Below are positions 2,784 through 30,010 of a DNA stretch of 64,000 bases, in pieces. The position numbers and the translations under genes were made by a program. The stretch is from Eledone cirrhosa (lineage: Eukaryota). The stretch covers positions 103,354,001 through 103,418,000 of the forward strand of contig OZ024740.1 in the NCBI GenBank assembly GCA_964016885.1, written 5' to 3'. The notes beneath the pieces are model-generated. The model saw only the letters and a program-made list of their open reading frames with translations, was not told the origin of the DNA and ran no database searches. Within the stretch, counting starts at the first letter, position 1, and every line of letters begins with the position of its first letter.

Positions 2784-3487
2784 CACGATAAATTAACGGA
2801 GGCATAGGCCGTCGTTATTCCCTGTAAATAATGTGCTCAAAGGGGAAGAGATCCTGAGCCCTTTAAAATATAATATGTTGAGAGGTTACACACCAGAGAG
2901 AGATATATAGTGCGTTATCAATAATACAGGGAAAAAAACCACCAGTGTATGGAATCTATAACCTATGAAAGGCAGACTATAGACACGATAATTAAAAATA
3001 TAAATTAAAGCGTAAATAAATACCTTTATAACTATATAACACACGTACAAATCCAAAGATATGTTTCACCAGAAAATTTGTTGAAAGAAATGGTCTAGTC
3101 TCGGTTCATCAGCGTGTGTAAGGCCATACATTTCAGACAACACTAAGAGAATTTTACAATTGACTGTCCAGCTACACGTGGGAGAGAGAAGTCACAGCGT
3201 GTTTAAGGGCAGTGAACCAGTGGCCTCTGAGAGACGAACTGCTATAAAGGGCAGCCCAAAGCCACTCAGAGAAGTGTGCTCAACCAAGCAGAGATAGGAA
3301 AGACTGTTGTTAGGAGCGAAATATCACGATAAATTAACGGAGGCATAGGCCGTCGTTATTCCCTGTAAATAATGTGCTCAAAGGGGAAGAGATCCTGAGC
3401 CCTTTAAAATATAATATGTTGAGAGGTTACACACCAGAGAGAGATATATAGTGCGTTATCAATAATACAGGGGAAAAAACCACCAGT
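2781..3487 (-). mobile_element. Non-coding retrozyme/PLE-LTR-like unit, 541-bp period with ~166-bp terminal redundancy, within (TA)n
   Basis: 2781-2946 repeated at 3322-3487; internal HHR at 3039-3119. Confidence 0.75.
3039..3119 (-). ncRNA. Type I hammerhead ribozyme with canonical core and full stem III
   Basis: Minus strand: acacacg-CTGATGA-acc...ggt-GAAA-catatctttggatttg-TA-cgtgtgt; 7-bp perfect stem I, GUA cleavage triplet. Confidence 0.85.
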
Positions 3488-7731: not shown

Positions 7732-7788
7732 TATATATGTATATATACGATATTAAACAAATGGAAACTATATTTATAAAACCATATT

Positions 7789-7854
7789 TATTTCATTATA
7801 CATATTTCAGGGATACCATATTAAAAACATGGCATGCCTTCTTCAGATAAAATA
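7789..7854 (-). ncRNA. Minimal HHR, PLE family A
   Basis: Minus: tattttat-CTGAAGA-aggcatgcca...tggtatccct-GAAA-tatgta-TA-atgaaata. Confidence 0.85.
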
Positions 7855-9960
7855 CAATATATAAGCAGTTTTATAAATAAATTTGACGTACCATAGAATT
7901 TTGAACAACTTCCATTTAAAAAAGTTGGTTTGGTAGTGAGATGTTTGTAAATATTTAGTGTTAAGTACAGTTAGAAAAGAAAGACGGGGAGAAGGAGTAA
8001 ATGTATGTAAAGAAAAACAGAGAGAGATAGAGAGAGATATGGGAGAGAGAAAAATAGTGAGGAGGTGAAAAATGAGAGGCAGCTGAAGCAACAGATGAAT
8101 AATAATAATTCAACATGCAAAATGAGAGACTTGGGGGGGAGGGAGTACTGTAATTATTTATTTATTTATTTATTTAGTTATAGTGTTAAGGAGACGGAGA
8201 AAAATAAAAATAAAAAATAACTAAAGAGAAAACAGTGATACATAGATTACATCATGTATAGAGGGAGGAGAAGAAAGCTATATCTAGATAGAAAGATGAC
8301 AGATTTACAACTTTACGTTATGTTCTATCAATTTGAATTATCAATTTATATGAATTGGGTATTATACTGTAGATATCAATATTCATGAATGAGACATAGA
8401 TATATAATGTGTGAAAAATAATGACCATATGTTTAGTTTAAAAATTCTTAGGTCGATATATTAAAAACCTGAGATAAAACTTCAAAATACATAAGTATAT
8501 ATGTACTTTCTGGAAAAAGAAAGAAAGAGAAAAAGAGAAGGTCATCTCAAGTTCTAGTTGACACTATAGATATACACGTGAGCATACGTGATCAGCTCTG
8601 TAATTTCTCATTTCACATGAAAAAATTTTTTCCTTGCGTTATAAAAGATTTTACTATATATATATACATACATACACATACATAAAAATATAATATATAT
8701 TAATATTAATATTCCTGCCCTACCACACATGATTATCGTTCATGTATAGAATAGACAACAGATATCAATATATCAAAACGCTAAGAATACTTTCATCACT
8801 CCCTAGAGTGTCTAGGGCTTTAAAAAACACAGTATGCCCCCCATATCAACCACATAAATCAACCCTTCCAATTTATCTGACAATACATTGCCAAGTTCAT
8901 TAGAAGCAATCAGAATCAAAAGCAAACAAAAAACCAAAATTATTCAACAAGACTTATTTAGCAGAAATCATTTAAAAGATTTAGGAGACCCTGTTGTTCT
9001 ACAGATGCTCTTATATTTAGTATAGAAGTTTATCTAGCGTAAAATTTATTCAATAGATTGGGAGCATCAACATTTAAGGGTAGTTTAATTACATCATTAG
9101 TATATATTTATGAAGAAGGTTTAAAAAAGAAAAAGTTGAAGGAATCGAAAGATTTATCGTCATGTTTCATAATTAATTAAATAAATATCTTAACTAAATA
9201 TACTACATTTTAAATTTATATTTATATTTAAACGTTGAGTTCAATCTATGTCTGCAGCAACTGAATAAATTGCTTCTTAGATTAAGGGAATTTTTAGATT
9301 TTAATATAAAGAATATCTCCTCCACGCAGAGGTCACATGTCTCAGATGAGGAATTAAAAGGAATCCCTCTTGAGACTATATTCCAAAACAATGAATATCC
9401 AACGTTATCATGTTTAAGTTGCCAGAGTAAGCCTGATAGTGAAGTTGAAGATTTTTTGCCTGGATCTGTGAAAGAATTCTTATGATTATTATAGCGAAGT
9501 TTAAATTCTGTCGAGGTGGAACCAACATAGTTAAAAGAATTTAAGTCAGTTTTAACATTACAATTGTATATTATATTTTTAACTAAGCAATTGTTATTTA
9601 ACGGACATTTAGATTTATTTCTACAGTTACAGTTGTTTAGTTGAATATTGTTTAGGCTATTATCGGTATTTTGGCTAGGTTTTAGATTCCTATTATTTAT
9701 TCTGTTAATATTTTGTGCTAAGTTTTTGGTGGACGAGTAAGTTAATTTTATAGTATGTCTATTAAAAATTGAGTGATATTTATGTGTTCTAGGGAAGCGT
9801 TTGTCAAGAGCATTAAAAAATAGTTTACCGTCTTTCTTTTCTAACTGTACTTAACACTAAATATTTACAAACATCTCACTACCAAACCAACTTTTTTAAA
9901 TGGAAGTTGTTCAAAATTCTATGGTACGTCAAATTTATTTATAAAACTGCTTATATATTG

Positions 9961-10026
9961 TATTTTATCTGAAGAAGGCATGCCATATTTTTAATATGGT
10001 ATCCCTGAAATATGTATAATGAAATA
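9961..10026 (+). ncRNA. Minimal HHR, PLE family A (inverted copy)
   Basis: tattttat-CTGAAGA-aggcatgccatat...atatggtatccct-GAAA-tatgta-TA-atgaaata. Confidence 0.85.
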
Positions 10027-10194
10027 AATATGGTTTTATAAATATAGTTTCCATTTGTTTAATATCGTATATCTACTCCAAAACTTGTTGAGTGCTTTAT
10101 ATCAGTTATAAAATATTTACTCGTTGTAACCCAACAGTTTTAAATAAAACTTTTGCATATATGTATATATATATATATATATAAATATATATAT

Positions 10195-11850
10195 ATCATC
10201 ATCATCATCATCATCACCGTTTTACGTCCGTTCTTCCACGCTAGCATGGGTTAGACGGGTTGTCCTGTTGTGGGCAGTGTCTGGTCGGCTGACCATGCCT
10301 TGCTCATACAGGAACTGATCTGGCTTGATTTCTACAGCTGGATGCCCTTCCTAACACCAACCTCATTTACAGTGAGTGCTGGGTGCTTTTTCGTGGCGCC
10401 TACACGTCCACTTTACAGTGTGGGCTGGGTGCTTTTTTGCCGTGGCACCTCCACGACCACCTTGCGGTGGGGGGGGGGGGGGGGGCATATTGTTTATATG
10501 CTTCAGCATGTACCCATGGGAGGTCGGGTACCCTGTATTACTGCGTGACGCCAGAAGTCACGGTCGTGTGTCATTGACTTTGAGAGGTGTAGTTGGGTAA
10601 GGTCGGCTTTTATCACCTCATCCCAAGTCATCTTGGGTCTCCCCACTCCGCGGTTTCCATCAACTTCTAGTGCTCTGCACCTTTTTATGCAGCTGTCATC
10701 CTTCATACGCATCACATGTCCATACCAGCGTAACCGCCTCTCCTGCACGCAGCATTTGATTCCTCTTATGCTCAGTCTCTCTCTCAATTCATTTATGCTT
10801 TGTCGTTCACATATATTACTGTTACACATCCATCGGAGCATGCAGGCTTCGTTTCTCTCTAATCTACGTAAGTCTTCCACCTTCAGCGCCCAGGTCTCAC
10901 TACCATGCAACATCGCTGTTCGGATACACGCATCATACAGTCTGCCTTTCATTCTGAGGGAGAAGCCTTTTGCAGCTAGCAGTGGTAGTAGTTCCCTAAA
11001 CTTCTTCCATCCCGTTCTTACCCTAGTTATTGTACTTTCTGAGCACCCACCTCCGTTGCTAATTCGGTCACCTAGGTAGCAGAAGCTGTCTACTGTTTCT
11101 ACAGGGCCCTCCCAGAGATTGGTGGTACTTGTTTCCTGTGGCTGTTTGCTTGCTGTTTCAGCACAGCTGCTGCATGTGAATCCTACATTCTTAATTAAGC
11201 TTCCTGAGATCCCGCTACATCTCTTGTGTACCCATTGTTTGCATTTGGGGCAAAGAATGGAGTTCCTACCTACACCTTTCCTACATACTGAGCAAGGCCA
11301 TTTCCCTGAGGGGATCTGGGTTCTGTTTTCTCGTCTACTTATAAGGACCTTAGTCTTTGTCATGTTGACTTTGAGGCCCTTTCTCTCTAGTCCCTGCTTC
11401 CAGGTTTGGAATTTATTCTCTAGTTCTACCATAGATTCAGCTATGAGTGCGAGGTCATCAGCATACAGGAGTTCCCATGGGCATCCGGTCTTAAACTCCT
11501 CCGTTATTGCCTGCAGGACTATGATGAACAGGAGAGGGCTAAGAACAGAGCCCTGGTGGACCCCAACCTGTACGCTAAATTCCTCGCTATACTCATTGCC
11601 AATCCTAACTTTGCTGACTGCTCCCCTATACATGGCTTGTACCGCTTTCACAAGCCATTCATCTACTCCTAGTTTTCTAAGAGCCCACCAGATTACTGCA
11701 CGTGGAACTCTGTCAAAGGCTTTCTCAAGGTCGACAAATGCCAAGTAGAGTGGCTTACTTTTAGCTAGGTACTTTTCCTGTAATTGCCTCACAAGGAAGA
11801 GCGCATCAGTGGTGCCTTTCCCTGGTACAAACCCAAATTGCATCTCGTCT
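10195..11850 (-). mobile_element. 5'-truncated RTE LINE (family B) with open RT ORF 10503-11843
   Basis: QFGF, FVDLEKAFD, GVHQGSVLSPLLF, YADD, PHD-like CSVC..CPKC..HKRC..CSSC insert, RLRWYGHV. Confidence 0.96.
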
Positions 11851-11867
11851 ATAGGTTATTACATTAT

Positions 11868-12405: not shown

Positions 12406-12735
12406 TGTATTCAGCCAGGTAGAGTGAAATTTTCTCATTTATATAAATATATATATATATAAATGTAAGTATGTATACGAAGGCATACCATATATGTGTA
12501 CCTGTATGTATATATATATATATATGCATGCTACTGTACGTCTGTATACATATATGTATGTACGTATACATACATACTTACATTTAAGTAAGTGCCGTAC
12601 TAAGAGTGAGAAATGAAATTTCGTTTCATTCTATTACAACTTATATATATATAAATATATATATATATATAAATATATATAAATATATATATATAAATAT
12701 ATATAAATATATATATATATATATAAATATATATA

Positions 12736-12792
<57 letters not shown>

Positions 12793-12793
<1 letters not shown>

Positions 12794-13440
12794 ATACATT
12801 ATGAAGAGAGAAGAAACATTTAGATATAATTAGTAATAAAATGTATCATACCTAAACTGTTCCTAAATTCCTCTCCCTCTGGTCGACCAATCTTTGAAGT
12901 GTGGGGACAACTGGAAAGCTTCCATTACTCATACTTCTCGCCTTCTTCACTACCTCTTCTACGGCCTCGATATGAATACCCCCTCCGCCTCCGTGGTATT
13001 TTCTTTGTGGTTATAAGAGGCTTAGCTCTGTTTCTCGACCGTTATATCGCGTGACTATCTCCCCCTCCGCCTTTTGGGATTCTTTCTCACGTCGTGTAGA
13101 CGCGTTCTTGAGACTAATAAAATGAGGTATCCTCTTGATAAGTCGGCAGACCTCGCAAGGACTCTATATCTTTGATATATTGTTTTTGTTTATGCCACGA
13201 AACTACGTAGTCGAGGAATTTAGGAACAGTTTAGGTATGATACATTTTATTACTAATTATATCTAAATGTTTCTTCTCTCTTCATAATGTATTTTTAACT
13301 CTGATACTGGTTCAGTCTGGTTCAAACTGAATTGGTCTGTCCCAGTCATTCATTGAGCAACATCGGTGAAGTCGGCACCCTTAACTCACAGTTGGGTGCG
13401 GATGCATTCATGTATATATGTGTGTGTCCGCATGTATCTG
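12793..13440 (+). mobile_element. Non-coding PLE/retrozyme-like insert with ~80-bp inverted 5' duplication
   Basis: 12793-12873 is the reverse complement of 13213-13293; internal HHR; flanked by (TA)n. Confidence 0.8.
13130..13217 (+). ncRNA. Type I HHR with U3:A8 covariant core
   Basis: tcctc-TTGATAA-gtcggca...tgccac-GAAA-ctacgtag-TC-gagga; palindromic stem III ACTACGTAGT, GUC triplet. Confidence 0.82.
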
Positions 13441-13451
13441 TGTGTTTCTTA

Positions 13452-19121
<5,670 letters not shown>

Positions 19122-19280
19122 ATATATATATATATATATATAAGCAAAAGGATTATTCAATTTGTTGGTAATTCAACAAATATAAATGTTTATAACTGAT
19201 TCAGAGCAGTCAACAAGTTTTCTGGAGTATAATATACAATGATATTAAATAAATTGAAACTATATTTATAAATCCATATT

Positions 19281-19341
19281 TATTCTATTATATATATTTC
19301 AAGGGTACCAAAACTTTGGAACGCTTTCATCAGATAAAATA
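19281..19341 (-). ncRNA. Minimal HHR (inverted copy of 23096-23156)
   Basis: Minus: tattttat-CTGATGA-aagcgttccaaa..tttggtaccctt-GAAA-tatata-TA-atagaata. Confidence 0.83.
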
Positions 19342-20031
19342 CAAAGTTTGTTTTATATATTTTGACATAACCAAGAAAAGATACGTTAACGGTTCAAGTT
19401 TTTCTTGGATAGTGAAGGGAAAAGAGAAGAAAAGTCAGATATTTCAAATTATTAAGATGAGTATGCAAATGAGGTTGAGGTATAGGGCTGAAAAAACGTT
19501 ATTTTAGACGCTATGCAGAATTTAAATAATTAGGATATATGTATGTATGAGTAGGAAGAAGAAAAAAGAAAGAAGAGCTTGTATTTACGTTAATTTAAAA
19601 GGAATTAACAATTTGCGGGAATGGTGGAATATGATTCCAGAATTTAAATTTATTTAGCTATATTATGAGTTATAATATTGTAATTTATAATCAATTAGAT
19701 TATATGAAGAATTATGGTTGTAGGTAGATTTTATCTTATTACATTACAATAGGTTGTAAGTATATAAATATCTATATAGATTAATAATTGTGCATGTATA
19801 AGTATTATAGAAATAGAAATAATTTACAATTATTAGTTGTTTACATTTCTAATATAAGTTACGAAGGATGTTGATTTTGGATTTTACATTAAAAAAACAG
19901 GTAGTTCAAGTTGTAAGAGGAGAACAATTTGTAGATTCGAATATTTTGTTCCAACATTGAAAATGTTTTCAGAATATTGTTAATTTAGCGAAGTTATATA
20001 GTTTGTCATACATATTATATTATAATATAAA

Positions 20032-21919: not shown

Positions 21920-23095
21920 TATTCATTACACTTGACTATATCTTATACACCTTCAAAATGATCCTATTTTCTTTAAAAATTTAAATTTAAATTTTTTAAA
22001 TGATCTTCCTTCTTAATTTTTTAATATTTCTACTATTTTTACCATTTGACATTAATTTTTTAATTTTTTAATATATTTCTTTACTATTTTTACCTTTTGA
22101 CATTATTTTTCTAATGATACCCCTCTAAATATATTTTTTTAGATGTAGATTGATAATCTTTAATTGACATTCTGAAAGTTTATCTCTTTACGATAGTTCT
22201 TCGCAATGCACATTACTTTTTTCCTCTCCTTTTGATCTTCAAACTTTCACACATCTTTTGACTAAAATAATATATAATTGAAATTAATCTCACACAAAAT
22301 AATATATAATTTTCTCTATATATTTTCTGAGTAAATCATTCATCAAATTTAAAGCTTAACAAACAAGATTGGAGTTATCTTTCCCTTTTAAATCGTGCAA
22401 ACATAAACATTATATTATAATATAATATGTATGATAAACTATATAACTTCGCTAAATTAACAATATTCTGAAAACATTTTCAATGTTGGAACAAAATATT
22501 CAAATCTACAAATTGCTCTCCTCTTACAACTTGAACTACCTGTTTTTTATGTAAAATCCAAAATCAACTTCCTTCGTAACTCATGTTAGAAATGTAAACA
22601 ACTAATAATTGTAAATTATTTCTATTTCTATAATACTTATACACGCACAATTATTAATCTATATAGATATTTATATACTTACAAACTATTGTAATGTAAT
22701 AAGATAAAATCTACTTACAACCATAATTCTTCATATAATCTAATTGATTATATATACAATATTATAACTCAAAATATAACTAAATAAATTTAAATTCTGG
22801 AATCATATTCCACCATTCCTGCAAATTGTTACTTCCTTTTAAATTAACGTAAATACAAGCTCTTCTTTCTTTTTTCTTCTTCCTACTCATACATACATAT
22901 ATCCTAATTATTTAAATTCTGCATAGCGTCTAAAATAACGTTTTTTCAGCCCTATACCTCAACCTCATTTGCATACTCATCTTAATAATTTGAAATATCT
23001 GACTTTTCTTCTCTTTTTCCTTCACTATCCAAGAAAAACTTGAACCGTTAAGGTATCTTTTCTTGGTTATGTCAAAATTTATAAAACAAACTTTG

Positions 23096-23156
23096 TATTT
23101 TATCTGATGAAAGCGTTCCAAAGTTTTGGTACCCTTGAAATATATATAATAGAATA
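23096..23156 (+). ncRNA. Minimal HHR in PLE 3' terminal repeat
   Basis: tattttat-CTGATGA-stem II-GAAA-tatata-TA-atagaata; 8-bp stem I with one G-U. Confidence 0.85.
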
Positions 23157-23345
23157 AATATGGATTTATAAATATAGTTTCAATTTATTTAATATCATTG
23201 TATATTATACTCCAGAAAACTTGTCGACTGCTCTGAATCAGTTATAAACATTTATATTTGTTGAATTACCAACAAATTGAATATCCCTTTTGCTTATATA
23301 TATATATATATATATATATATTTTTCTTCTTCCTACTCATACATA

Positions 23346-25786
23346 CATCATCATCTTCGTTTAACGTTCATTTTCCACGCTAGCATGGGTTAGATGGGAG
23401 TTGTCCCACTTGAGGCAAGGCTGGTCGGGTTACCGTGTCTCACTCATATAGGACTATCTGGCAGGTTTTCTACGGCTGAATGCCCTTCCTAACACCAACC
23501 ACATTTACAGTGTGGAACTGGGAACCTTTTACCGTGTTACCTACACGACCACATTACAGCGTGGACTGTGTGTTTTTTTTTGTCGTGACACCTACACGAA
23601 CTCGATCTCATTTTCTCGTGCTTTTGGTGGGAGTGGGAGTATAGGGTAGGGGTAGTAGATTGGGGTGTATATTTGGTTAAGAGGTGCCTACTGACTGTAG
23701 GTTTCGCTTTGTACATAAGCAAGGCGGGTCTTCTGTATTACTGTGTAGCACCAAAGATCTCGGTCCAGAGACATTGTCTTAGAGAGATGTAAGTGTGTGA
23801 GGTCGGAATTTATCAGATCATCCCAGGTTTTTCTGGGTCTACCTACTCCGTAACTACCATCAATTTTGATCGCTCTGCACTTTTTTATGCAGCTGTCGTC
23901 TCATGCGCATTACGTGACCATACCAACGTAGTCTTCTCTCAAGTAAACAGCATCTGATCCCTCTTATTCCTAATTTCTCACTTAGTTCATTTATGCTTTG
24001 CCGTTCACGTATATTACTATTACACATCCAACGGAGCATGCAAGCTTTGTTCCTCTCCAGTCTGCGTATATCCTCTGCACGTAATGCCCATGTCTCACTG
24101 CCATATAGCATTGCTGTTCGTATGCAGGCATCATACAATCTGCCTTTCATTTTTAGAGAGAAACCTTTTGTGGCCAACAGCAGTATAAGCTCTCTAAACC
24201 TTTTCCATCCCGTTCTGACTCTGGCTACTGTACTTTCAGAACACCCTCCACCACTGCTGATTTCGTCACCCAGGTAACGGAAAGTGTCTACTATTTCTAT
24301 AGAACCATCTGGGCAATCGAAGGAGCTAGTATCCTTTGGACACTTGCTACTTATTGCACCTGAGCATTGGCCACAGATAAAGTCTACGTTCTTAGATAGT
24401 TTACCTGTGATCCCACTACATCTTTTATGTACCCATAGTTTGCATTTGGGACATAAAATGGAATTTCTGCCTACTCCTTTCCTACGCACTGAGCATGGCC
24501 ATTTCCCTGAGGGCACCTGTGCCCTATTTTCCTTTCTACATACTAGAACTTTAGTCTTAGACAAGTTAACTTTAAGGCTTTTGATTCTAGGCCATGCTTC
24601 CATGTTTGGAATTTCTTCTCTAGTTCAGCCATTGATTCAGCTATGAGCGTGAGATCATCTGCGTATAGGAGTTCCCATGGGCAGCCGGTCTTGAACTCCT
24701 CTGTTATAGCCTAAAGGGCAATAATAATAAGAGGGGGCTAAGGACAGAGCCTTGATGAACACCAGCTTTTACACTAAATTCTTCACAATATTCATTGTTA
24801 ATTCTAACCTTACTGACTGTTTCATTATACATAGCTTGTATAGCTCTCACAAGCCATTCATCTACACCTAGTTTTCTAAGAGCCCACCAGATAATGGAGC
24901 GGGGGACTCTGTCAAAAGCTTTCTCCAGGTCTACAAAAGCTAAGTAGAGGGGTTTACTTTTAGCTAGGTACTTCTCTTGTAGTTGTCGTACAAGGAAAAG
25001 AGCGTCTGGTACTTTTACCTGACACAAACCCAAACTGCATTTCATCTAGATCAATTCGCTCTCTGATTAGTTGCGCTATAACTCTTTCTGTGGCCTTCAT
25101 GACCTGGTCAACTAACTTAATGCCTCTATAGTTTCCCCTATCTAGAGCATCCCCTTTACCCTTGTAGCAGTTAATGATGATGTTGCTACGCCAGTCTTTC
25201 GGTATGACCCCATTCTATATGACTTGTTTTACTATCCGGGTGACCATGGTGTGTCCCACCATACCAGATGCCTTCAACATCTCAGCAACTATCTCCGAAG
25301 GCCCAGCTGCCTTGCCTGTCTTCATATCTTTGATTGCCTTACTTATTATACTACCTTTAACTTGGACTGCTGGTCCTTCTATTGGATCGATTTGGGGCAG
25401 ACTATCTTTTTCCCATTTATTCTCCTCATTTAATAGTCTCTCGTAGTGACACTTCCAGGCTATCTTCTTATCAGTATCAGTAAGAGCAAGTACACCATTA
25501 TCATTACGGACACACTTCTCCCCGACAATATCACGGTTTTCCTTGACACATTGTCTAGCAATCCTGAACACCTCACGTTTTTGGTCCTCACGTTGGAGAA
25601 CATGCGTGAACTTTCTATCCTCTGCTACCCTTTTTGCAAGGTACACTTGTCTCCTAGCTTCTCTCCTGGCCACTTGATAGTGCTCTCTACTTCCCCCATC
25701 CTGCCATACTTTCCAAGCCTGATTTTTTGCCTTGATTGTCTCTTCCACCTTACTGTTCCACCACCAAGTTACTCTCCTCCTGCCAA
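23346..25786 (-). mobile_element. 5'-truncated frameshifted RTE LINE
   Basis: ORF pieces 25215-25748, 24704-25045 and 23860-24603 with RT motifs; (CAT)n tail. Confidence 0.95.
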
Positions 25787-27391: not shown

Positions 27392-30010
27392 ATCATCATC
27401 ATCATCATCATTTTACGTCCGCTCTTCCCTGCTTGCAAGGGTGGGACGGGTCTTATTCAGCACAGCATCTCTCCACTCGTCACGGTCCTTCGTCATCTCC
27501 ACCGTGAGCTTCAGTGATCTGAGGTCTGTTCTCACCACCTCCGCCCATGTTTTTCGTGGTCTACCTCTACCACGTCTTCCTTCAACTGGCATTTCCTGGC
27601 ACTTCTTTACCCATCGGTCATCCTCCATGCGCATCACATGTCCATATCACCTCAGTCTCCTCTCCAGTACACTACATTCTATCCCTCTCAGACACAGTTT
27701 CTCTCTCAACACATTAATTCTGGCTCGTTCACGCACATTGACACTGCACATCCAGTTGCTGCCCATGTCTCACTACCATGCAACATTGCGCTCCTCACAC
27801 AGGCATCATATAACCGGCCTTTCGTACGCAGGGAAAAACCCTTCTTCATCAGCAGAGGAAGCATCTCCCTAAACTTCTTCCACCCCATCCTTATTCTAGA
27901 TACTATGGCCTCGGAACATCCCCCTCCCATGCTAATCTGATCTCCTAGGTACCGGAAGCTATCCACCACTTCTATAGCACCAGCCTGCATTTGAAAAATG
28001 TGTCTATCAATGCGACTTCTACTGTCTAATTTCCCTGTACATCTACTGCATACATATTTCTCCCTACCTTTTAGTTTTCCTGCTTTCCCGCTACATCTCT
28101 TGTGTACCCAGGATCTGCATTGTGTGCATTTTATAGAATTTATGCCAGTTCCTTTTCTGCATATCGAACATGGCCATTTCCCTGATGGAATTAGAGTTTT
28201 GTCCTCTTTTCTACTCATTAACACTTTTGTCTTAGCTAGGTTCACTCTCAGTCCTCTTGCTTCCAAATGCTGTTTTCATAGCCAGAATTTATTCTCTAGC
28301 TCCTCTACTGACTCTGCTATAAGAACCAGATTGTCAGCATAGAGAAGTTCCCATGGACAGCCAGTCTTAAACTCCTCTGTTATGGCTTGGAGGACTATAA
28401 TGAACAAGAGCGGGCTGAGGACCGAACCTTGATGTACTCCTACTTGTATCTGGAATTCCTCATTAAACTTCATTCCTACCCTGACTTTACTGACAGTACC
28501 TCTGTACAAAGTTTGCACTGTCCTCACAAGCCATTCCTCAACACCTAGTTTCCTTAGGTACCACCAGATGACAGATCGGGGTACCCTATCAAAGGCCTTC
28601 TCTAGGTCAACAAAGACTAAGTATAGTGGCTTATTTTTCTCTAAGAACCCCTCTTGCAATTGTCTCACCAAGAAGAGGGCATCTGTTGTACTCTTGCCAG
28701 GCACAAAACCAAACTGCATCTCATCTAGTTTGATCTTTTCTCTAATTAGTTGTGCTAATATCCTTTCTGCCACTTTCATAACCTCATCCATCAGTTTTAT
28801 ACCCCTATAATTGCTCCTCTTCAGAGTATCCCCTTTACCTTTGTAGCAATTTATGAGAATGCTGCTGCACCAGTCTTTGGGTATGACACCACCATATATA
28901 GCCTGATTGATGATGCATGCAACCAGCTTAGTGCCTATGTCCCCTGATGCCTTCAGCATCTCAGCAACTATTCCCGATGGTCCAGCAGCCTTACCATTTT
29001 TCATTTCCTTAATCGCCTCTTGGACCCTATATTCGTCAATCTCAATAGCTGGTCCCTCTGTCGGATCTACTGAGGGTAATTTCTCTCTCTCCCATTCGTT
29101 CTCCACATTCATCAGTCTCTCATAATGACATTTCCAGGCCTCCTTTTTCTGATCATTCGTGACACCACTAAGTACACCGGCATCGTTCCGGACACATTTA
29201 TCTCCAATAACATCCTGATTTGCATTGACACACTGCCTTGCAATGTGGAACACCGCACGCTTCTGATCTTCCCTTCGCAGAACACTGGCAAACCTCCTAC
29301 TCTCAGCCTCCCTGCGTTCTAAGTACACCTGACGTCTAGCTTCTCTCTTAGCGGCTGTATATTCTTCCCTACTCCCACCCTTTTTTCAAGCCTTCCATGC
29401 TAGTCTTTTGTCTCTAATGGCCTTATCTACTGTGCTGTTCCACCACCAGGCCACTCTCTGTCTGGTTGGAGCTCTGCTCCAGCCACAAGTTTCATCAGTA
29501 GCCTGCAGTAAGTTGTCACATAAGAAATTCCAGTTATTATCTATGTCATACGTCTCTAAATCGTCTTCTTTTTCGTCATACACATCTTGAAGGGTTTTCC
29601 TAAATTTGTATTTTAGTGAAAGGTCTTTTAGCTTCCAGACCTTTCTTCTCCACGCCTTCCTGTATGTCTCATTCCATCTCTTGCTTACTGAGATATCACT
29701 AACCTATGCTGTGGGGTACATTCTTCCCCAGGGTATGCCTTGGTATTAGACACTATCTGCCTGTCCCGCTGCCTAACTAGTAAGAAGTCACTCTGGCTTA
29801 TGTGCTCGCCAGATTTGTAGGTTATTAGGTGGTTGGCAAGTTTCTGGAAGTTTGTGTTGCAAATAGTCAGTTTACTTGCATCACAAAATTCAAGAAGTCT
29901 CACTCCTTCTTCATTTCTTGAGCCGTAACCATGCCCACCATGTACCCCAGTGTAACCATCCTGGAGCTGTCCAACATGACCATTGAAGTCCCCTGTTAGC
30001 ATAACGAGTA
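27392..30010 (-). mobile_element. Long RTE LINE (family C), APE endonuclease remnant through RT, essentially no 3'UTR
   Basis: GDFNGHVG and QHRLV (APE), NYRGIKL, QFGF, YADN; ORF stop lies immediately before the (GAT)n tail. Confidence 0.95.

Follow-up and report, generated by a model that had tools for sequence, protein, structure and literature searches.

Head-to-head retrozyme insertions in Eledone cirrhosa pair two fixed 3' termini, with breakpoints scattered around a small excess at the predicted hammerhead cleavage site

The 64,000-nt stretch of Eledone cirrhosa DNA analysed here (hereafter the window) harbors a retrozyme copy with two arms in inverted orientation, one of which breaks off at the predicted cleavage site of its own hammerhead ribozyme. 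We consider this locus to be a head-to-head, twin-primed retrozyme insertion in a TA microsatellite that was made by a borrowed Penelope-type reverse transcriptase (RT)/endonuclease. The stop at +1, the first base after the predicted site, would then be background or a weakly favoured position rather than the cause of the inversion. We give this reading a probability of roughly 0.7. The two arms were probably primed separately, since both end outward at fixed 3' termini.

All 81 positions of the left arm match the reverse complement of 13213-13293 (blastn E 2e-37), and the pairing breaks off on either side, as the original prediction had described it. The arm also begins, as claimed, at the first base after GTC 13210-13212, and 13213 is thus +1 of the predicted site. 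The exactness of this match has to be relaxed, because C12873 can also be read as the beginning of the right arm (the unit reads ...AAC/TCCCTC here, an overlap of 1 nt), so that the breakpoint is either +1 or +2. Likewise, the span given for the duplication, 12793-13293, is right for the left arm and too short for the insertion, whose right arm extends to 13457 (Table 1). Another dispersed repeat (12431-12645) adjoins the TA target tract at this locus; it is found beside many further retrozyme copies, too.

Table 1. Features of the two-armed retrozyme insertion in window coordinates (E1 and E2, the two 3' termini of the unit)
Feature	Position	Strand	Description
(TA)n-type target tract, left flank	12641..12792		Target-site duplication unreadable in the tract
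Left arm	12793..12873	-	Unit +81 back to +1 (+1, base after GUC); outer end is E1
1-nt microhomology, head-to-head junction	12873..12873		Breakpoint +1 or +2
Right arm	12873..13457	+	585 nt long (unit 251 to 244; full unit ~591 nt); passes the intact ribozyme; outer end is E2
Type I hammerhead motif (predicted)	13130..13217	+	Stem I 13130-13134 with 13213-13217; U3-A8 core 13135-13141
Remainder of hammerhead motif	13142..13212	+	Stem II with long loop 13142-13198; GAAA 13199-13202; palindromic stem III; GTC 13210-13212
Predicted long hairpin, +1..+71	13213..13283	+	+1..+5 pair here, not in stem I, in monomer folds (p 0.94-0.99)
One-sided tail, ~164 nt	13293..13457	+	Between E1 (about 13292) and E2 (about 13457)
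(TA)n-type target tract, right flank	13458..13858		Continues into an assembly gap

The element is built from a tandem unit of about 591 nt (period 588-592 nt), with up to five units per arm, and ORFs of at least 150 aa are absent from 12793-13293. A genome-wide search with a 23-base motif that begins at +1 gave 5,063 exact matches, compared to none for the reversed control. The units are short, noncoding and tandem, each carries a type I hammerhead motif, and they are dispersed in many copies, as in non-LTR retrozymes; the inverted truncated copy, the one-sided tail and the TA target make up the insertion signature of a non-autonomous Penelope-like element (PLE). Judged by these sequence features, the element is a retrozyme and a non-autonomous PLE. 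The unselected insertions referred to below come from the first 100 matches listed for the +1 motif; these belong to 45 loci, of which 40 were used, with one local duplicate and the last four loci left out. This sample is biased only in that at least one intact +1 motif was required, and lone arms stopping downstream of +1 are therefore missing. The flanks of these loci are mostly TA repeat (72 of 80), within which target-site duplications are hidden.

The putative ribozyme has the conserved core, the three stems, the open stem I and the NUH site of a type I hammerhead: TCCTC/GAGGA as stem I, TTGATAA...GAAA as core, a bulged stem II with a long loop and a palindromic stem III. In the fetched loci, the core TTGATAA is unchanged in 218 of 220 motif instances. 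Stem I covaries, since an older, ~80%-identical subfamily has TCCCC/GGGGA, a change on both sides. A search of Rfam at the gathering threshold gave no match anywhere in the window. U3-A8 is described in the hammerhead literature as a natural active covariant of C3-G8 (passages of PMC3088659), and a palindromic stem III and action as a dimer are given as typical for metazoan and PLE hammerheads (passages of PMC4209133). The motif anatomy, the kept core, the covariation in stem I and the active U3-A8 precedent together make the predicted register, 13210-13212/13213, credible; the core conservation and the two-sided change in stem I thus speak for the hammerhead as it was originally placed. A monomer, however, is predicted to mask the ribozyme by self-pairing: +1 to +5 are paired with +58 to +73 (p 0.94-0.99) in all nine intact monomers folded (a tenth row is a rearranged unit), and stem I is absent from the predicted monomer folds. 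One pair of this +1 to +71 hairpin is altered on both sides.

A stronger result concerns the 3' ends. Among 67 segments from the 40 unselected loci, 31 end at E1 (+74 to +83), 28 at E2 (+238 to +248) and 8 elsewhere, which defines two fixed sites 164 nt apart. Older subfamilies of ~80% identity use the same termini. In all fetched young loci we found 55 head-to-head junctions, five of them cut by the locus edge and 12 with a non-canonical end. The remaining 38 all pair an E1 arm with an E2 arm, and neither E1+E1 nor E2+E2 occurs; in the unselected sample, the rule holds in 17 of 17 cases. A minor third 3' terminus lies at +211 (L038, L108, L123 and L133; about 13424 in the window), at an ATGTAT-like motif in the tail. 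Folds of +1 to +267 and alignment folds contain a helix between E1 and E2 (13284-13293 with 13449-13458) as basal helix of the tail domain; it shows no two-sided pair change, and its p is at most 0.06 in whole-monomer folds.

Both arms of an insertion, and all of its tandem units, share one template haplotype. The arms of one insertion diverge by 0.38% per nt versus 1.70% between insertions (31 of the 38 were comparable, p 8e-7), and tandem units by 0.26% within an arm versus 1.64% between insertions. Rare letters were present in all copies at 22 sites (10 of these with 3-8 copies) and in one copy at 49, never in some. Arm identity could partly reflect later gene conversion, and unit identity could reflect very young source arrays. 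The units are homogeneous and carry private variants, which agrees with a monomer template. Should the insertions preserve any trace of in vivo cleavage, it would be this homogeneity and not the breakpoint. The units are so nearly identical that a test of unit register does not separate them. Of four contig runs, whose kind is unrecorded, X1 and X6 gave one closed contig each, of 621 and 620 nt; we do not count such closed unit-length contigs as evidence for circles, because tandem DNA yields them, too. The arms overlap by 1-5 nt at 15 of the 17 unselected junctions.

What follows on the enzyme, the circle and the sequence of events is inferred. The hammerhead would cut multimer transcripts, and the products would be closed into monomer circles. 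A Penelope-type reverse transcriptase/endonuclease would cut both target strands and prime them on one and the same RNA, with E1 as the site for one strand and E2 for the other. The enzyme would roll round the circle, and both cDNAs could run several laps before halting at variable positions, after which a microhomology of 1-5 nt would join their 3' ends. In the window insertion, the E1-primed cDNA would have reached a length of 81 nt, and the E2-primed cDNA one of 585 nt, before stopping. Passages of a study on a PLE protein report that it cuts and extends both target strands, that it initiates at two sites bounding the tail and that it is a predicted dimer (PMC11167929). A more elaborate version is tentative, and we would bet against it as a whole: an enzyme dimer might grip the 164-nt tail of a single hammerhead-made circle, where E1 and E2 may pair, prime a strand at each and roll out both cDNAs, with up to about 5% of the junctions (a hump at +1 to +25, the window's included) stemming from self-cleaved linear templates as true in vivo fossils.

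It had originally been proposed that ribozyme cleavage is a mechanism for 5' inversions in PLEs, with a peak at +1 among the breakpoints of other copies as the check. When we ran this check, no such spike appeared. The 5' breakpoints of the 40 unselected insertions are scattered over the whole unit, and only 1 of 67 falls within -2 to +3 (L062, at -1). They are thus not concentrated at the cleavage site as in R2, and what remains there is an excess of about 2-fold. The other arm tells the same story, since the right arm of the window insertion reads through the ribozyme junction, as happens 92 times in the 67 unselected segments; a template spanning an intact or re-ligated ribozyme, also part of the original prediction, is supported. 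Because the breakpoints are spread and the ribozyme is passed intact by the partner arm, we do not regard cleavage as what produces the inversions.

The surroundings of the site were covered by a genome-wide census of junctions from -5 to +9, based on an exclusion-pattern listing with a hand tally of the matches. After 5 indels and 5 duplicates had been dropped from 147 matches, 137 junctions were left; the junction of the window insertion does not pass the filter and is absent from them. We counted 15, 6, 1, 5 and 3 junctions at -5, -4, -3, -2 and -1, then 18, 17, 4, 9 and 12 at +1 to +5, and 12, 4, 14 and 17 at +6 to +9. The 18 at +1 compare with 9.7 expected without a microhomology preference (about 2-fold, p 0.01); models favouring microhomology expect 5.9-6.6, which makes the excess larger. 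Inverted junctions alone show 11 of 67 at +1 versus about 5 expected (p 0.01). The claimed enrichment at +1 therefore survives as a small excess and not as a peak, as +2 and +9 both have 17.

Wider lists overlap in their loci and are hence not independent: in the first 100 of 387 matches listed, 5 of 96 junctions are at +1 and 8 each at +13 and +16, and in 100 of 310 matches listed, 7 of 76 are at +1 and 8 at +16. The density per nt is 0.96, 1.56 and 2.77 for -50 to -26, -25 to -1 and +1 to +13 (100 of 141 matches listed), and 1.06, 1.64 and 0.97 for -16 to -1, +1 to +25 and +26 to +54 (86 of the first 100 of 685 matches listed, after removal of 14 diverged full copies). There is thus no spike at +1, and the roughly two-fold excess sits inside a broad hump from +1 to +25. 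Allowing for filter loss, we estimate about 30 junctions at +1, which is near 0.6% of units. As the other breakpoints are spread, with only an approximately two-fold excess at the site, the match at the window locus is likely mostly chance; given this excess within the hump, the position is not wholly irrelevant. For the stop of the window's arm, we would give background chance an even share and divide the other half equally between a cleaved end and a stall.

A cleaved end would arise if a minority of templates were linear with a hammerhead-made 5' end, on which the cDNA runs off, trimming smearing the ends over +1 to +25; the inversion would still come from two primings. This is rather doubtful, even though +1 tops the census, the inverted junctions share its excess and the +1 to +25 interval is denser than either neighbour. 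Two further points agree with it: only 30 junctions were observed at -5 to -1, where 45-48 were expected, and R2 5' junctions are reported to track the ribozyme site (passages of PMC3774820). The best candidate for a cleaved template is L037, in which both arms stop near the site, at +1 and +2. However, the junction is read through intact, or the partner arm stops elsewhere, in the window insertion and in 8 of the 9 insertions that have an arm at +1, +2 or -1, and both arms carry one haplotype. Arms starting at +1 had already passed an intact junction in 5 of 16 cases, much as their neighbours at +2 to +26 (13 of 38). The counts at +2, +9, -5 and +8 are similar to that at +1, and a sizeable cleaved pool predicts hundreds of ends at +1, where 18 were seen against 5,063 units. 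For the Anolis Poseidon element PAc, passages of Frangieh et al. (2024, PMC11167929) also state that hammerhead (HHR) mutants insert normally and that no reads ended at the HHR site.

Stalling is a live rival, because +1 is the base of the predicted hairpin and lies just 3' of stem III. The RT might pause 3' of this palindromic stem, at the base of the +1 to +71 hairpin or where the circle had been imperfectly ligated, and no free 5' end would be needed. The consistent pairing of +1 to +5 and the two-sided change in the hairpin would agree with a pause, as would the stops at +1 of arms on a later pass and the equal frequency of +1 and +2. We nevertheless find it somewhat unlikely. The hairpin comes from folding predictions, and its 3' strand would already have been copied once the enzyme arrives at +1. 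A purine at -1 was found in 14 of the 5,063 motif matches; 12 of these are junctions and only 2 are point changes (C to A), so there is no clear ligation scar. Extra untemplated letters, counted by eye, occur at 4 of 8 junctions at +1 versus about 4 of 20 nearby, proportions that are indistinguishable.

A single cDNA or antisense template could also snap back and prime itself, with the endonuclease resolving the hairpin at the other terminus. Such self-priming has been proposed for palindromic Penelope junctions (passages of Arkhipova et al. 2013, PMC3846280). Like twin priming on one RNA, it predicts one haplotype in both arms, and the arm lengths of 81 and 585 nt in the window are compatible with it. 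Near-symmetric junctions, with breakpoints within 35 nt of each other on the unit, are in excess (6 of 17 unselected junctions, p 0.01); they were found in L046, L052, L053, L068, L071 and L077, and some are perfect palindromes. This subset suggests fold-back or a common template end. As a general explanation fold-back is unlikely, since 17 of the 38 insertions have arm lengths that are impossible for one folded-back cDNA (the other 21 are compatible by length), and the unit positions of the window's two breakpoints differ by 250 nt, with a 1-nt overlap. The arm lengths of one insertion are uncorrelated (n=17, rho 0.07).

The template switch of the original prediction, in which a cDNA reaches the cleaved 5' end and continues on an uncleaved or ligated template, is highly improbable: the window locus fits it by position and at least seven other inverted junctions begin at +1, but the spread of the unselected breakpoints largely refutes it as a general mechanism, a new sense RNA would keep polarity and give a direct instead of an inverted join, the exact end of the second arm at the other terminus (38 of 38) is left unexplained, and, in the window's two other two-armed hammerhead insertions, about 190 and 740 nt separate the inner ends from the predicted sites.

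In L1 twin priming, two target-strand primers on one RNA give rise to an inverted 5' part, and the second primer lands at variable internal sites. In the retrozyme, by contrast, both primers would sit at fixed sites, and what varies is where the two cDNAs stop. The 5' junctions of R2, with its HDV-like ribozyme, are a precedent for a junction that records a cleavage site (passages of Eickbush et al. 2013, PMC3774820). There, the ribozyme site sets the element's 5' end, whereas well under 1% of units end at it here.

Metazoan non-LTR retrozymes are described with units of 150-450 bp (main texts of Cervera and de la Pena 2020, PMC7229834, and Li et al., bioRxiv 10.64898/2026.07.22.740005). Our element has in common with them the short noncoding tandem units, each with a type I hammerhead, the dispersal as monomers to multimers, the proposed circular RNA template and the proposed mobilisation by PLEs. 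It differs in its 591-nt unit, the U3-A8 core variant and a monomer predicted to hide the ribozyme. Inverted insertions, breakpoints and tails did not turn up in a word search of these main texts. With endonuclease PLEs (as described in passages of Craig et al. 2021, PMC8557442; Arkhipova et al. 2013, PMC3846280; and Schostak et al. 2008, PMC2377424), the element shares partial tandem copies, a neighbouring inverted copy truncated at its 5' end, a tail that is often present on one side only, (TA)n targets and 5'-junction microhomology. Unlike these, it has no ORF, its tail measures about 164 nt versus 30-40, and its one-sidedness is absolute (38 of 38). As in PAc, two initiation sites would bound the tail, both target strands would be cut and extended, and HHR cleavage may be dispensable; PAc is, however, an autonomous element studied in vitro, and the passages in question (PMC11167929) do not mention a single insertion using a separate site for each strand on the same RNA.

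Previous work has thus already described inverted arms, one-sided tails, hammerheads and TA targets. Our literature search, which was weak on subscription journals, found no count of the E1+E2 rule, no demonstration of one template for both arms and no test of retrozyme breakpoints against the hammerhead site. Passages in this literature state the origin of inverted arms and one-sided tails in PLEs as open, and mobilisation of retrozymes by PLEs rests there on co-occurrence and phylogeny. The retrozyme offers thousands of young copies and a long tail by which the two termini can easily be told apart. The tail 'often at one end' becomes a counted rule, and the role of cleaved ends is given a ceiling, well under 1% at +1 and at most a few percent nearby. 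Taken by itself, the one coincidence flagged at the window locus matters little.

The genome carries long ORFs with RT and GIY-YIG domains. A screen of 50 GIY-YIG loci, drawn from 10,595 candidates, revealed no autonomous partner whose terminal repeat matches; these loci matched the retrozyme only in low-complexity sequence and in one independent retrozyme insertion. One PLE family (L195, L196, L200, L204 and L206) has GIY-YIG matches, frames of up to 844-938 aa and a minimal hammerhead with the same U3-A8 core. It has no nucleotide match to the retrozyme, and we regard it as a first candidate partner.

The window also contains other hammerhead motifs. Two inverted insertions of another family have two arms each: 7739-7987 with 9828-10076, which carries minimal hammerheads with a predicted +1 at 7796/10019, and 19122-20030 with 22410-23315, with a predicted +1 at 19288/23149. 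Further hammerhead motifs lie at 3045, 12052 and 26036. Fragments of a repeated retroelement, in which RVT_1 is followed by a PHD finger, were found on the minus strand at 10503-11855, 23860-24624 and 27706-29385.
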